Assembly (NCBI GenBank): GCA_964384105.1
Contig: CAYLJV010000001.1
Coordinates: 96,001 to 160,000, forward strand
Direction: 5' to 3'
From: Candidatus Hadarchaeota archaeon
GTDB taxonomy: Archaea; Hadarchaeota; Hadarchaeia; Hadarchaeales; JAGGTB01
Length of the DNA: 64,000 nt
The notes under the pieces: generated by a model
The model's input: only the letters and a program-made list of their open reading frames with translations
The model's database searches: none
What the model was told of the DNA's origin: nothing
Made by a program: the position numbers and the translations under genes
In this document: piece by piece, positions 9,316 through 60,066 of the stretch
Layout: each line of letters begins with the position of its first letter
Position numbering within the stretch: the stretch's first letter is position 1

Positions 9316-9457
9316 GGGGCCATAGTGTAGCCAGGCTAACACAGCAGGCTCCAGCGGAATTAGAATTAAACTTGCTGATGGTCAAGATGATGACCTGCTG
9401 GAGCGAGGATTCTGAAGAAACCTGCGACCCCCGGTTCAAATCCGGGTGGCCCCACCA
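9316..9457 (+). tRNA. tRNA-Trp(CCA) with a 65-nt intron at 37/38 (9355-9419), CCA end encoded
   Basis: Acceptor GGGGCCA/TGGCCCC-A-CCA; anticodon stem GCAGG/CCTGC. The intron contains CTGA, ATGATGA and an antisense TGCTGGAGC. Confidence 0.93.
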
Positions 9458-9622
9458 TTTTATCTTTAATGATAGAAGAATAATTCGTTTCAGTATCCAG
9501 TGATTTTGCCTGACTTAAGCGGGTGATAAACTATTTTTATTCTTTAGGTAACAAAAGATTATTCAATTTCTAAATAACAAGTTTTTAATGTTTGAATACA
9601 AGCTAATCGGTGAGTTGTCAGT

Positions 9623-10159
9623 ATGGTTGAAGATATTCCTAAAGCCCATTTTTATGGGAAGAGAATAATAATAGATGATGAATCTCAAGCTAGTAGGGTC
9701 CACCAATATGGCTCTACAGGTAAACCTCTATCTGGTGGCCGCCTTCAGCTTTCTCCTATTGAGGCCCTTTATCTTTTGGAAAAGGATAAAATACAGGTTT
9801 TTAGCGAAAAAGAGAAGAGAGAACTCGGTTTTAATGATCTTTCTTCTATGCTTGTGGAGGATAATCCTGACTTGCTTCTCAAATATAGGGTGTATAGAGA
9901 TCTTAGATCGAGAGGTTTAGTAGTTAAAACCGGACTGAAATACGGGGCCCATTTTAGAGTTTATGCTAGAGGTGAAAGCCCTGGTTCTTCTCACTCGCCT
10001 TATTTAGTCCATGCGATTTCGGAGGATTCAAAACTTACACCACAGGACCTGGCAGGTTCTGTTAGGTTGGCCCACAGTGTTAGAAAAAGAATGATATACG
10101 GTATCGTAGACGATGAAGGGGACATAACTTATTATTCGATAAAAAGGGAGAGTCTGTAA
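9623..10159 (+). CDS. endA: tRNA-splicing endonuclease (178 aa, size of the alpha4 type)
   Basis: LSPIEALYL, KTGLKYGAHFRVY, HSPYLV and RLAHSVRK (Tyr/His/Lys triad). Confidence 0.95.
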   Translation: MVEDIPKAHFYGKRIIIDDESQASRVHQYGSTGKPLSGGRLQLSPIEALYLLEKDKIQVFSEKEKRELGFNDLSSMLVEDNPDLLLKYRVYRDLRSRGLVVKTGLKYGAHFRVYARGESPGSSHSPYLVHAISEDSKLTPQDLAGSVRLAHSVRKRMIYGIVDDEGDITYYSIKRESL

Positions 10160-11260
10160 ATGACTGAGCAAATAGACCCGTGGAGTGAAGTGGTTCCAAG
10201 CGACTATGTTGAGCTGATGGAACAATTTGGGATAGGGTCTTTTGATGATCTCATTGATGATGTTCCCGATCCGAATCATCTGATGCGCAGGAAGATAATT
10301 TTCGGACACAGGGATTTTGATAGAGTTTTGAAGGCTATCAATAAAGGAGAGGACTATGTGGTGATGACTGGATTGATGCCTAGTGGGAAAATGCACCTTG
10401 GTCATAAATTAGTGGTGGATCAGTTAATTTGGTATCTTGAACATGGAGCTACTATATACCTCTGTGTAGCGGATTTGGAATCTCATATAGCTAGGGGTTT
10501 AAGCCTTGAAGAAGCTAGAAATTTTGCAATTGAAGAATATTTGACCAATTATATGGCCCTTGGTCTAGATATTGATAGATGCAAAGTTTACTTTCAGTCT
10601 AAGAGCGACGCAGTTCAAAAACTTGCCTATACTCTGGGTAGGAAAGTTAATTTCAGTGAGCTAAGGGCTATATACGGTTTCGAGAATGATACTGATGCTT
10701 CTCATATTTTTTATCCTATGATAGATGTTGCAGATATTCTTCGTCCTCAGCTGAGGGAGTTTGAAGGACCCAAACCTTCTGTTATTCCTGTTGGGATAGA
10801 CCAGGACCCACACCTTAGGTTGGCTAGGGATGTTGCAGCTAGATTTAAGAGTGATTTTGATTTTGCTCCACCTTCTTCTACCTATCATCGGTTGATGCCG
10901 GGTTTGACCGGAACGAAAATGTCCAGTAGTAATCCCAAGAGCGCCATCTTTCTTACGGATTCTATAGAAGATGTTGAAAAGAAGGTTAAGAGTTCTGTTA
11001 CGGGGGGTCGACATACAGTGGAGGAGCAGAGAGAGAAAGGTGGAAAGCCTGACGAATGTATGATATACGATTTGTATGTTTACCACCTCGTCCCAGATGA
11101 CGAAGAGTTATTGGAGTTGAGAGAAGCCTGTGAATCGGGGGAGGTTATCTGTGGGGAGTGTAAGGAGAAAGCTTTCAAATTTTTGAAAAAATTCCTAAAA
11201 AGTCACCAGGAAAAAAGGAAGAAAGCTCGAGAGAAGGTTAAAGAGTTTATTGAAGAGTAA
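10160..11260 (+). CDS. trpS: Tryptophanyl-tRNA synthetase
   Basis: TGLMPSGKMHLGH, GIDQDPH, KMSSS and C-terminal CGECK motifs. Confidence 0.96.
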   Translation: MTEQIDPWSEVVPSDYVELMEQFGIGSFDDLIDDVPDPNHLMRRKIIFGHRDFDRVLKAINKGEDYVVMTGLMPSGKMHLGHKLVVDQLIWYLEHGATIYLCVADLESHIARGLSLEEARNFAIEEYLTNYMALGLDIDRCKVYFQSKSDAVQKLAYTLGRKVNFSELRAIYGFENDTDASHIFYPMIDVADILRPQLREFEGPKPSVIPVGIDQDPHLRLARDVAARFKSDFDFAPPSSTYHRLMPGLTGTKMSSSNPKSAIFLTDSIEDVEKKVKSSVTGGRHTVEEQREKGGKPDECMIYDLYVYHLVPDDEELLELREACESGEVICGECKEKAFKFLKKFLKSHQEKRKKAREKVKEFIEE

Positions 11261-59744: not shown

Positions 59745-59791
59745 ACTATGTGTTTTCCTTTAGTGCTCTGATTATTGCCTAAGTTGATATA

Positions 59792-59933
59792 TGCCGGGGG
59801 CGGGACTCGAACCCGCGACCTCGCGATTTCCCACATCATCTCGTGGATCAGCACTCACAACCGAGATTAAGAGGCTATGAGTCGCGCGCTACTAACCACC
59901 TGAGCTATCGGGTCCAGTTAAGGATACCCCGGC
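59792..59933 (-). tRNA. Elongator tRNA-Met(CAT) with two introns: 8/9 (59907-59925, 19 nt) and 37/38 (59828-59875, 48 nt)
   Basis: Removing both introns gives GCCGGGG-TA-GCTCAG...CGCGA-CTCATAA-TCGCG-AGGTC-GCGGG-TTCGAGT-CCCGC-CCCCGGC-A. Both junctions form BHB motifs. Confidence 0.9.
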
Positions 59934-60066
59934 TCAGCCCCGGCACATTTGTTTACTATTGGCGTCTCTCTTAAAAGATGCTTTTGTTGTACGATCTTAA
60001 AGTTTCTAAAAGAATGATGATAGTAGTTTTGAATCATTAGATTTGCTTTTTTGGATAAGGATTTTC

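Follow-up and report, generated by a model that had tools for sequence, protein, structure and literature searches.

A candidate intron between positions 8 and 9 and a leader copy of the 5' acceptor strand in an elongator tRNA-Met gene of a Hadarchaeota archaeon

Layout of the tRNA-Met gene

The window analysed here is a stretch of 64,000 nucleotides from the genome of a Candidatus Hadarchaeota archaeon, in which positions 59933-59792 of the minus strand form an elongator tRNA-Met(CAU) gene carrying two predicted introns, one of 48 nt at 37/38 and one of 19 nt (59925-59907) at 8/9. The gene with its 8/9 intron had been described in an earlier, sequence-only reading of the window, together with an exact second GCCGGGG upstream of it, and the letters are as described there. 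On the minus strand, T (59945) is followed by GCCGGGG (59944-59938), CTGA (59937-59934), GCCGGGG again (59933-59927) and T8 (59926), and then by the 19-nt insert (59925-59907) and A9 with GCTCAG (59906-59900). The upstream GCCGGGG is an exact repeat of the 5' acceptor strand of the tRNA, with 4 nt between the repeats. In the order of transcription the features are:

59970-59976, minus strand: TATA box TTTTAAG, with the leader copy 25 nt and the true G1 36 nt further downstream
59938-59945, minus strand: leader copy of the 5' acceptor strand, GCCGGGG (59944-59938) with a T (59945) that can pair with the discriminator A73
59934-59937, minus strand: leader CTGA (-4 to -1), which pairs with tRNA positions 12-15 and extends the outer helix of the splice motif
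59926-59933, minus strand: exon 1, tRNA positions 1-8, delimited by sequence, motif scan and in-silico splicing
59907-59925, minus strand: predicted 8/9 intron of 19 nt, a 3-bp hairpin with a 6-nt loop plus the CCCG strand of the central helix
59876-59906, minus strand: exon 2, tRNA positions 9-37, with the D arm and the anticodon CAT (59879-59877)
59828-59875, minus strand: predicted 37/38 intron of 48 nt, in which CTGA and GATGATG boxes accompany a segment antisense to the anticodon loop
59792-59827, minus strand: exon 3, tRNA positions 38-73, with the T arm (59816-59800), CCCCGGC (59799-59793) and A73 (59792); CCA is not encoded

One promoter serves all three exons, which follow each other in collinear order within 153 nt; this sets the gene apart from split and permuted tRNA genes. 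Once both predicted introns are cut out in silico, the result is a canonical tRNA that ARAGORN calls as a normal 75-nt tRNA-Met(CAT) with its first base at 59933. Neither ARAGORN nor Rfam at the gathering score picks up the gene in its unspliced form; in E-value mode the Rfam model gives 26.3 bits against a 29-bit cut-off, with a wrong alignment. A comparison of this kind had been proposed in the sequence-only reading. Standard tRNA finders thus miss the interrupted gene, and the genome appears to be without an elongator tRNA-Met.

The TATA-like TTTTAAG, likewise picked out by that reading, aligns with the box of the tRNA-Met gene at all four same-genus loci (TTTTAAA in one of them). Hand counts of the TATA-to-G1 distance within the genus give 25, 28, 33 and 40 nt, a range that holds both of the distances seen here, 25 nt to the upstream copy and 36 nt to the true G1. 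From the usual archaeal distance between TATA box and start, we predict that transcription begins at about 59946-59948, i.e., 1-3 nt upstream of the leader copy.

The motif at the 37/38 intron, checked by hand, has an outer helix of 5 bp, a central helix of 4 bp with one G-U and a weak inner helix of 1 bp. The two boxes of this intron are conserved among the tRNA-Met genes of relatives, and the intron might act as a methylation guide.

The bulge-helix-bulge motif of the 8/9 intron

The motif around the 8/9 intron consists of an outer helix of 6 bp, four of them from the leader, between CTGAGC (59937-59932) and GCTCAG (59905-59900), a central helix of 4 bp between CGGG (59931-59928) and CCCG (59912-59909), and an inner helix of 3 bp between TCC (59924-59922) and GGA (59915-59913). 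The 3-nt bulges GTA and ATA lie on opposite strands, and all pairs are Watson-Crick with no G-U. Exon 1 contributes G1 and C2 to the outer helix and C3-G6, as the 5' strand, to the central one; its last two bases, G7 and U8, fall in the 5' bulge. The arrangement has the strict hBHBh' form, with outer and inner helices both present, and cutting after the second base of each bulge restores the canonical tRNA. Just such a motif, with the leader CTGA in its outer helix, had been drawn from the sequence alone. A motif scanner run over the minus strand of 59960-59780 returns it as the top one of 7 candidates, with exon ends at 59926 and 59906, and the RNAfold minimum free energy (MFE) structure of 59975-59790 is identical to the fold proposed before, including the pairing of the 3' acceptor strand with the upstream copy (-72.9 kcal/mol, z = -2.97; 2 of 200 shuffles equally stable).

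All-Watson-Crick motifs with an outer helix of at least 5 bp and an inner helix of at least 3 bp number 29 over both strands of the whole genome, and a shuffled 717-kb contig yields 6 by the same criteria. The 8/9 motif is unlikely to have arisen by chance. We hold it highly probable that a real intron is spliced through this motif and, at a step lower, probable that the leader CTGA belongs to what is recognised. TGA at -3 to -1 is present in 4 of 26 intron-less relatives; hence, some of the pairing of the leader CTGA may pre-date the intron.

Carriers of the arrangement and its recent gain

The same arrangement occurs in contigs from four runs of four studies, which sampled mats, brines and salt lakes:

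Run X1 contig: 59789-59996, 0 differences
Run X5 contig: 59791-59984, 1 difference
Run X6 contig: 59872-59988, 0 differences
Run X20 contig (RNA library): 59792-59937, 4 differences

The X20 variant begins about 6 nt ahead of the leader copy. Its 7-mer is unchanged, but two of the six bases in front differ and an insertion of 3 bases follows. X20 also has the sole variant inside the 8/9 intron, at 59907 in the 3' bulge, with the helices intact. This is the only RNA-library contig; it is unspliced and possibly derives from DNA in that library. No joined exons, circular intron or processing intermediate appear among the contigs compared, nor any transcript starts or ends—the comparison used contigs, and the unspliced X20 contig is no evidence that the spliced form is absent. 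In the X5 and X6 contigs, similarity drops abruptly just outside 59791 and 59988, a break that could be a recombination boundary or reflect a different species or a chimeric contig.

Among relatives, 29 of 29 tRNA-Met genes are uninterrupted at 8/9. A phylum-wide pattern search of the 65 other genomes found no genuine interrupted gene (two genomes matched, neither match being a tRNA), which leaves this genome as the only one with a genuine interrupted tRNA-Met among the 66 of the phylum. Going by these sequence comparisons, the 8/9 intron is a recent, lineage-specific gain confined to one species-level lineage. Compared with its kin, the gene is longer by 30 bases (59937-59908), located after tRNA position 7 and before position 8; these can equivalently be read as the 19-nt 8/9 intron plus an 11-nt leader repeat. 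The sequence-only reading had overlooked that copy and intron might be a single 30-nt insertion. MAFFT aligns the acceptor strand of the relatives with the true copy rather than the upstream one. Covariation of leader copy and motif in related genomes, proposed earlier as a check, is not seen; all carriers are nearly identical, and the case for conservation of the copy therefore rests on one variant.

The 8/9-gap pattern combined with the D arm of the genus had no match in metagenome contigs. A wider pattern matched 94 stretches in genome contigs and at least 120 in metagenome contigs, none of these 214 matches having a T arm with a matching 3' strand; we rejected them as carriers, since each is a chance 8-mer ahead of an ordinary, mostly bacterial, tRNA D arm. 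Viral contigs gave 3 chance matches and none to a 17-nt piece of the intron, and by blastn-short the insert has no second copy in the genome and best foreign matches of 12-13 nt.

Genome context of the only elongator tRNA-Met found

BLAST of the genome, which is 90.2% complete, finds no second copy of the tRNA-Met gene, and a CAU anticodon occurs otherwise only in the initiator and in one tRNA-Ile-like gene, probably tRNA-Ile2 judging from an acceptor strand shared, and an anticodon arm near-identical, with tRNA-Ile(GAU). No second intact elongator tRNA-Met, named in the sequence-only reading as part of a refutation, was found at this completeness. The interrupted gene adjoins rpiA, like all four same-genus loci. 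Two more non-canonical introns occur in the genome, both at 30/31, where they rearrange the tRNA body; no leader-type duplicate is evident by eye in the sequences of these genes. The view in the sequence-only reading that such introns belong mainly to Thermoproteota does not fit these cases, nor the link drawn in the accessible text of Kaneta et al. (2018) between DPANN α4-type enzymes and disrupted tRNA genes.

The genome also has an odd tRNA-like gene at C4:41380-41515. Elsewhere, a duplicated 3' fragment of tRNA-Leu(GAG) lies at a distance of 18 kb from its gene, an integrase-family match stands between the two, and two further integrase-family loci lie at most 2 kb from tRNA genes. The integrase-family search gave no match on contig C1, which holds the tRNA-Met gene, and a 7-nt repeat with 4 nt between its copies and no recombinase does not conform to the att-site duplication model of Sugahara et al. 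(2012).

The splicing endonuclease

The window also codes for the presumed splicing enzyme:

9623-10159, plus strand: EndA, tRNA-splicing endonuclease, 178 aa (PF01974, 2.3e-34; PF02778, 4.8e-15)

It has the two-domain build, an N-terminal PF02778 and a catalytic C-terminal PF01974 domain in one polypeptide. PF01974 marks one locus in the 90%-complete genome, with no second (β) subunit gene detected by a search that could miss a divergent one. The gene is flanked by an intron-bearing tRNA-Trp gene (9316-9457) and an ORF of 366 aa (10160-11260) that we take for a probable TrpRS. Aligned with the Methanocaldococcus jannaschii enzyme (1a79), it shows no large gaps and is 4 residues longer in an N-terminal loop; it is without the 9-residue loop of the A. 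pernix protein (3p1z_B) and the 5-residue insert of ARMAN-2 (4fz2), where the gap falls before the catalytic His. Hence the earlier assignment as a strict α4-type enzyme holds up so far as the alignment goes: the ORF is real, single and M. jannaschii-like, and it appears to be of the narrow-specificity α4 type, the loops linked to broad specificity being absent. Matching either insert to the 'L3' loop that Kaneta et al. describe is guesswork on our part. The Atlas matches of this EndA point to DPANN clusters. In the part of Hirata et al. (2011) available, a narrow-type enzyme barely cleaved a motif-bearing D-loop intron. RtcB (594 bits) and the RNase P RNA (220 bits) are both encoded in the genome.

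Folding with and without the leader copy

None of the 46 other ARAGORN-called tRNA genes has a copy (6 or 7 nt) of its own 5' strand within 40 nt upstream. The energies used are nearest-neighbour values for 37 °C and standard salt, and the organism lives in salty habitats. In the ensemble of the transcript with the copy, the copy pairs with 59793-59799 at probabilities of 0.98-1.00, pairs of the outer helix reach 0.99-1.00 and those of the central helix 0.72-0.73, against 0.00 for the true acceptor stem, and the motif fold is favoured by 13.6 kcal/mol. A transcript that begins at CTGA, without the copy, has motif pairs at 0.01-0.02 and the true acceptor stem at 0.95-0.98, the motif fold being disfavoured by 2.6 kcal/mol; for one that begins at G1 it is disfavoured by 10.8 kcal/mol. 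The motif hairpin itself is formed within the first 48 nt of the transcript (-16.8 kcal/mol) and is part of the MFE fold at every growing length tested (48, 68, 98, 128 and 148 nt). Since the hairpin is formed before the 3' strand exists, the copy may help, on kinetic grounds, without being required. The proposal in the sequence-only reading that the precursor uses a surrogate acceptor stem is thus backed by the ensemble, which favours the motif when the copy is there, but is weakened by a hairpin already in place within the first 48 nt.

That reading also had splicing precede RNase P cleavage. In the model without the 8/9 intron, CTGAGC remains paired with GCTCAG, and for this reason the leader copy keeps an advantage of 9.7-10.1 kcal/mol over the true strand. 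With the leader ahead by about 10 kcal/mol after splicing, an order of splicing and then RNase P needs a refolding step, which that reading left out of account and which would call for tertiary folding or proteins that the energy model ignores. Overall, we put the functional importance of the leader copy at close to an even chance, inclining slightly to doubt.

A proposed maturation pathway

These observations can be arranged in a provisional pathway. Transcription would begin 1-3 nt upstream of the leader copy, and the first 48 nt are computed to fold into the strict bulge-helix-bulge hairpin from the leader CTGA, positions 1-8, the intron and positions 9-15. The 3' acceptor strand, as it emerges, would pair with the free leader copy, so that the hairpin is not invaded; with the 3' strand held in this way, the splice motif persists. 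The single narrow-type EndA would then cut both bulges behind their second base, and RtcB would join position 8 to position 9, whereupon the RNA would refold, with the true 5' strand taking over the 3' strand, and RNase P would remove the leader, including the copy.

The reading that we favour, with some reserve, is that of a working elongator tRNA-Met gene with a recently gained second intron, in which the leader copy is a cis decoy that frees the motif from the acceptor stem. Most likely, copy and intron arrived together in one insertion, and a copy that arrives with the intron would make the new intron spliceable from the start. Only tentatively would we go as far as a fuller version, in which the copy is a selected cis decoy without which the sole elongator tRNA-Met would be unspliceable, the order from splicing to 5' maturation is enforced, a narrow EndA is enabled to act and intron and decoy were born in one 30-nt insertion. 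If this were true, the insertion would be a snapshot of a bulge-helix-bulge intron born viable, with an insert that brings its own copy of the flanking exon and so spares the new motif from competition with the tRNA fold.

Alternative explanations

The most serious alternative, which we consider rather unlikely, accepts that the intron is real and spliced but sees in the leader copy merely a scar of insertion, the motif being cut before the 3' strand competes. Such a scar could go back to one insertion of 30 nt, to a tandem duplication of 11 nt, or to an integrase-type duplication of the tRNA 5' end of which it is the remnant. The early hairpin at -16.8 kcal/mol agrees with this, as does the identity of the 11-nt units 59948-59938 and 59937-59927 at 9 of 11 positions. 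The 25 nt from TATA box to copy equal the TATA-to-G1 distance of the closest relative (G002), which fits the upstream copy as the ancestral strand, and the copy, by its 9.7-10.1 kcal/mol, is a liability once the RNA is spliced. The available part of Sugahara et al. (2012) describes how integration of a mobile element brought a tRNA gene both an intron and a duplicate of its 5' fragment, and the present genome has its duplicated tRNA-Leu(GAG) 3' fragment and integrase-family loci near tRNA genes. Against this, the motif is nearly absent at equilibrium without the copy (the 0.01-0.02 given above), X20 keeps the GC-rich 7-mer in an otherwise AT-rich, fast-changing leader, the repeats are 4 nt apart with no integrase near the tRNA-Met gene, and the viral contigs hold no element-borne copy. 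Scar and function may also hold together.

The remaining explanations fare much worse. That the gene is a decaying pseudogene, with a working elongator tRNA-Met in the unassembled 10% of the genome, is very unlikely: the completeness of 90.2% and the lack of spliced RNA among the contigs leave room for it, but the exons are intact and give a canonical cloverleaf, the structure recurs in four studies with 0-4 differences, the rpiA-linked site is that of the full-length gene in each of the four same-genus loci, and a perfect motif is not expected of decay. Less probable still is a 7/8 intron, which would make the upstream copy the mature 5' strand and have all 30 nt (59937-59908) excised. The mature sequence would be identical, and the TATA spacing to the upstream copy is that of G002; however, neither scanner nor hand check finds a bulge-helix-bulge with cuts at 59938|59937 and 59908|59907, and the A (minus strand) of X20 at 59907 would put an A at tRNA position 8, where U is almost invariant in tRNAs. 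As for an artefact of assembly or duplication, a refutation that the sequence-only reading had itself raised, mis-assembly can create short direct repeats; the probability here is negligible, given independent contigs from four runs of four studies that carry the arrangement, one of them with sequence variants of its own.

Comparison with known systems

Going by the accessible text of a 2026 preprint on Asgard tRNA introns, the entry of introns into archaeal tRNA genes is an open question; a related one is how non-canonical introns persist under a supposedly strict endonuclease. The locus described here offers a recent gain in an essential single-copy gene, with the intron-less state kept in all kin, and its architecture suggests a testable solution to the folding conflict between motif and acceptor stem.

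The closest known class is that of the non-canonical archaeal tRNA introns (Marck & Grosjean 2003 and Sugahara et al. 2008, as summarised by Yoshihisa 2014), which are the same kind of short, protein-spliced intron outside 37/38, with a 4-bp helix between 3-nt bulges and with a canonical intron in the same gene, as here. The positions that Yoshihisa (2014) names in the text available are 20/21, 22/23, 25/26, 29/30, 30/31, 45/46, 53/54, 56/57, 59/60 'etc.' and 3/4, but not 8/9; we found no literature on introns between positions 8 and 9, though supplementary intron tables (Sugahara 2008/2009, 2026 Asgard preprint) may list such. Unlike the introns in these summaries, the present motif uses the whole 5' acceptor strand and four leader bases and has a spare strand in the leader, and the host is not a member of the Thermoproteales and has an EndA without the specificity loop. 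In split and permuted tRNA genes (Randau et al. 2005, Soma et al. 2007, Chan et al. 2011, via summaries), leader or trailer sequence that the mature tRNA lacks contributes to the motif, as here; in contrast, the present gene gives one collinear transcript, with neither trans-splicing nor a circular intermediate, and its leader contributes four outer-helix base pairs and a decoy strand.

Caldiarchaeum subterraneum (Sugahara et al. 2012, as far as available) likewise combines a fresh non-canonical intron with an upstream direct repeat of the 5' part of the tRNA, and in both cases the gain can be seen inside one population or species. In Caldiarchaeum the repeat spans positions 1-27 and is found 1.8 kb away, on the far side of a recombinase-bearing element, with no folding role proposed in that part of the paper; in the present gene it is 7 nt long, 4 nt away and inside the transcript. 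The 37/38 intron has its own parallels in the box C/D guide of the tRNA-Trp intron and the haloarchaeal Cm34 guide sR-tMet: it also has CTGA and GATGATG boxes, and in its antisense stretch C34 faces the fifth base upstream of CTGA, as in Cm34 guides. Unlike sR-tMet, the guide-like element lies within the tRNA-Met precursor rather than in a separate RNA, with one box pair evident.

Finally, pairing between leader and 3' end in bacteria (PMC9433436, accessible portion) hinders RNase P, affecting how or when it acts, as is proposed here. In that system the pairing extends the true acceptor stem, whereas here the leader strand would replace the true 5' strand—if the decoy role is true, this would be a new way for a leader to order the steps of tRNA processing.

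A splice motif built partly from the leader in tRNA-Met

The elongator tRNA-Met(CAU) gene is laid out on the minus strand as follows.

59976-59970, minus: TATA-like TTTTAAG, separated by 25 nt from the leader copy
59944-59938, minus: leader copy GCCGGGG of the 5' acceptor strand, preceded by T at 59945
59937-59934, minus: leader bases CTGA, between the two GCCGGGG copies
59933-59927, minus: second GCCGGGG, followed by T at 59926
59925-59907, minus: 19-nt intron between tRNA positions 8 and 9 (8/9 intron)
59906-59900, minus: A and GCTCAG, followed by the remainder of the tRNA with anticodon CAT
59875-59828, minus: 48-nt intron at the canonical position 37/38
59799-59793, minus: 3' acceptor strand CCCCGGC, after the T arm
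59792, minus: discriminator A

The order of leader copy, CTGA, second copy and 19-nt insert matches that of the sequence-only reading. The unspliced gene is called neither by ARAGORN nor by Rfam at the gathering score; run by E-value instead, the Rfam tRNA model misaligns the gene and scores it at 26.3 bits, below the cut-off of 29. Once both predicted introns are sliced out in silico, ARAGORN returns a normal 75-nt tRNA-Met(CAT) starting at 59933.

A scanner for strict helix-bulge-helix-bulge-helix motifs, run over 59960-59780, yields seven candidates, of which that at 8/9 is clearly the best (outer helix 6 bp, central 4 bp, inner 3 bp, no G-U pairs); it bounds the exons at 59926 and 59906. 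Four of the six outer-helix pairs join the leader CTGA to tRNA positions 12-15, and tRNA positions 3-6 supply one side of the central helix. The RNAfold minimum free energy (MFE) structure of 59975-59790 contains the same motif together with the upstream 7-mer paired to the 3' acceptor strand (-72.9 kcal/mol, z = -2.97; 2 of 200 shuffles fold equally well), bearing out the claim of a textbook strict bulge-helix-bulge. Such motifs are rare in the genome: slightly relaxed criteria give 29 over both strands, against six in a shuffled 717-kb contig. In addition, a 6- or 7-nt copy of the gene's own 5' strand in the 40 nt upstream occurs in none of the 46 other tRNA genes. The genome-wide scan also gives a few very strong motifs outside tRNA genes, at G000:C3:114485 (minus) and C2:180598 (G000 being the genome that contains the window, C1 and so on its contigs); one of them (outer helix 7 bp, inner 6 bp) lies within a putative element beside tRNA-Leu(GAG). 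Some of these may be rRNA-processing or other sites of the tRNA-splicing endonuclease EndA.

The arrangement is real DNA, and the suspicion of an assembly artefact is dispelled by its recurrence in independently built contigs from public runs of four studies: X1 (208 nt, 59789-59996, no differences), X5 (59791-59984, one difference), X6 (59872-59988, none) and X20, an RNA library (59792-59937, four differences, ungapped). In X20, the 16 letters past 59937 on the minus strand hold the 7-mer again, preceded by TGT, with three extra bases (CTT) between it and CTGA; two of the six bases preceding the 7-mer differ from the window. One X20 difference, at 59907, alters base 2 of the 3' bulge, within the 8/9 intron, and two more lie in the 48-nt intron. 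This contig is unspliced; it begins about 6 nt before the leader copy and stops 12 nt beyond A73, which would fit a primary transcript, with the proviso that contigs cannot show ends and an RNA library may contain DNA. The X5 and X6 contigs have 0-1 differences over gene, leader and promoter, and beyond 59791 and 59984-59988 they are unalignable at 90%; this could reflect a recombination boundary, another species with the same allele, or chimeric contigs.

A BLAST search of the host genome (90.2% complete) with the gene returns only itself and one T-arm match, revealing no second elongator tRNA-Met. The genome has two other CAU tRNAs, including the initiator:

G000:C8:35433-35567: initiator tRNA (CAU), with an acceptor strand beginning with A

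The rpiA gene adjoins tRNA-Met here and in all four same-genus loci (protein identity 58-62%). Genes for EndA, RtcB and RNase P RNA are all present.

The leader copy and the order of maturation

The splice motif draws on tRNA positions 1-6, and so does the normal acceptor stem; the two folds therefore compete. Pair probabilities came from ensemble calculations on unaltered sub-sequences with three transcript starts, the energies being modelled for secondary structure at 37 C.

Predicted pairing by transcript start
Start 59947 (copy included): motif outer helix 0.99-1.00, central helix 0.72-0.73; true acceptor stem 0.00; motif fold favoured over true-stem fold by 13.6 kcal/mol
Start 59937 (CTGA only): motif 0.01-0.02; true acceptor stem 0.95-0.98; motif fold disfavoured by 2.6 kcal/mol
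Start 59933 (5'-matured): motif 0.00; true acceptor stem 0.97-1.00; motif fold disfavoured by 10.8 kcal/mol

In the transcript that includes it, the leader copy pairs with the 3' strand at a probability of 0.98-1.00. By these ensemble values the copy is predicted to relieve the competition, so that the leader would have to persist until splicing: retained and bound to the 3' strand, it would act as a decoy that leaves the true 5' strand free to build the splice motif. The first 48 nt already suffice for the motif hairpin to fold (-16.8 kcal/mol), and the hairpin is retained in the MFE fold of every longer transcript tested; hence, co-transcriptional cutting could render the copy helpful, not essential. 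With the 8/9 intron removed, pairing of the copy with the 3' strand is still better by 9.7-10.1 kcal/mol in the model, since the CTGAGC/GCTCAG helix persists. Tertiary contacts, salt or proteins would thus have to bring about a refolding before RNase P gains access to the true G1, and this requirement is the weakest link of the model. The observation itself is confirmed, and the surrogate-acceptor interpretation is supported in part: its structure and thermodynamic logic hold in the model, with splicing, processing order and the necessity of the copy standing as proposals.

Other disrupted tRNA genes and EndA

Outside the window, two more tRNA genes carry a non-canonical intron, in each case at 30/31 and within a strict motif:

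G000:C1:351151-351247: tRNA-Ile2 candidate, a CAU tRNA only once a 21-nt 30/31 intron is removed (outer helix 3 bp, inner 5 bp)
G000:C8:12441-12560, minus: tRNA-Leu(TAG), with a 34-nt 30/31 intron (outer helix 3 bp, inner 7 bp)

The former is probably tRNA-Ile2, as its acceptor strand is that of tRNA-Ile(GAU) and the anticodon arms of the two are nearly identical. ARAGORN mislabels the two as Ser(aga) and Pro(agg), respectively. After splicing at the motif, its 'Ala(ggc)' at G000:C1:336773-336911 becomes tRNA-Asn(GTT) with a 64-nt canonical intron, and its 'Leu(caa)' at G000:C5:3039-3130 becomes tRNA-Pro(CGG) with a 14-nt one. Standard calls for intron-bearing tRNA genes in this genome are unreliable. 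A tRNA-like sequence at G000:C4:41380-41515 (ARAGORN His(gtg)) combines an acceptor stem of 8 bp with an insertion of ~54-60 nt; a search for motif and identity gave nothing convincing there, and a normal tRNA-His is present on C9.

EndA (9623-10159; 178 aa) has both Pfam domains and is the sole such gene found in the genome. Its residues 12-173 align to the homotetramer of M. jannaschii apart from length differences of 4 residues and of 1 residue, and it has neither the loop of 9 residues found in the A. pernix enzyme nor the 5-residue insert that precedes the catalytic His in ARMAN-2, in keeping with the earlier assignment to the strict type. The A. pernix loop gives broad specificity, and a narrow-type enzyme barely cut a motif-bearing D-loop intron in full pre-tRNA (Hirata et al. 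2011); DPANN alpha4-type enzymes having a C-terminal loop accompany more disrupted tRNA genes (Kaneta et al. 2018). The two introns at 30/31 in this genome imply that its EndA can process strict motifs at sites other than 37/38. Unlike these two, the 8/9 intron consumes the acceptor strand.

C/D-like boxes in canonical introns

The 37/38 intron of tRNA-Met (59828-59875, minus) carries CTGA and GATGATG boxes that are conserved in the genes of relatives sampled across the phylum (loci L002-L030). An antisense stretch aligns C34 with the fifth base before CTGA, and the intron looks like a putative box C/D-type guide for Cm34, with one evident box pair and no match in an Rfam search. In haloarchaea, by contrast, Cm34 is guided by the separate sR-tMet RNA. 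At 9316-11260 on the plus strand, tRNA-Trp, EndA and an ORF read from its sequence as a putative TrpRS form a tight cluster, and the 65-nt intron of this tRNA-Trp contains GATGATG and CTGA boxes.

Distribution and origin

A search among 40 relatives recovered 29 orthologous tRNA-Met loci, including four of the six same-genus genomes, and positions 7, 8 and 9 are contiguous in all 29; the remaining two same-genus genomes, at 70% and 85% completeness, yielded no full-length match. A gap-tolerant pattern run over 66 genomes of the phylum matches G000 and two non-tRNA sites. Wider patterns found no genuine case in species-representative genomes or viral contigs, nor among the matches listed from JGI metagenome contigs. 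Hence, the 8/9 intron and leader copy are a recent gain in one species-level lineage, which has been repeatedly sampled from mats, brines and salt lakes.

Relative to its kin, the gene has 30 additional bases between positions 7 and 8 (59937-59908), which can be read as the CTGA leader and a duplicate of positions 1-9, followed by a short hairpin and a strand complementary to positions 3-6. One insertion would give rise to intron and decoy simultaneously, an attractive origin because, by the ensemble values, an essential gene would have had difficulty splicing a lone intron. Alternatively, a tandem duplication of 11 nt is possible, as the two units are identical at 9 of 11 positions. From the TATA box to the copy there are 25 nt, the same as from TATA to G1 in the closest relative (G002); the true G1, at 36 nt, also fits, since spacings within the genus span 25 to 40 nt. 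MAFFT favours the true copy over the leader copy as the ortholog of the relatives' acceptor strand.

Intron gain with a duplicated 5' tRNA fragment has been attributed to mobile-element integration (Sugahara et al. 2012). No mobile element or integrase was found at the tRNA-Met gene. Elsewhere, the genome shows traces of integration at tRNA genes: tRNA-Leu(GAG) (G000:C3:111883-111970) has a ~40-nt copy of its 3' part 18 kb downstream (about C3:130090-130137), with an integrase-family match between them (C3:122662-122925), probably an integrated element bounded by the tRNA repeat. Further integrase-family matches lie 1-2 kb from tRNA-Ser(CGA) on C5 and tRNA-Gly(GCC) on C2.

Comparison with known systems

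Non-canonical introns with this motif and several introns per gene are established, and in split and permuted tRNAs motifs are known to be built with leader or trailer sequence. The many intron positions listed by Yoshihisa (2014) have 3/4 as an extreme and do not include 8/9; a 2026 Asgard census refers to a few insertions in 'acceptor stem and junctions' given in its supplement. A literature search, in which the notation 8/9 is not directly searchable, returned no description of a leader-encoded acceptor-strand duplicate. The intron is of an ordinary type; what sets it apart is where it lies, that it uses leader bases and, most of all, the proposed decoy strand.
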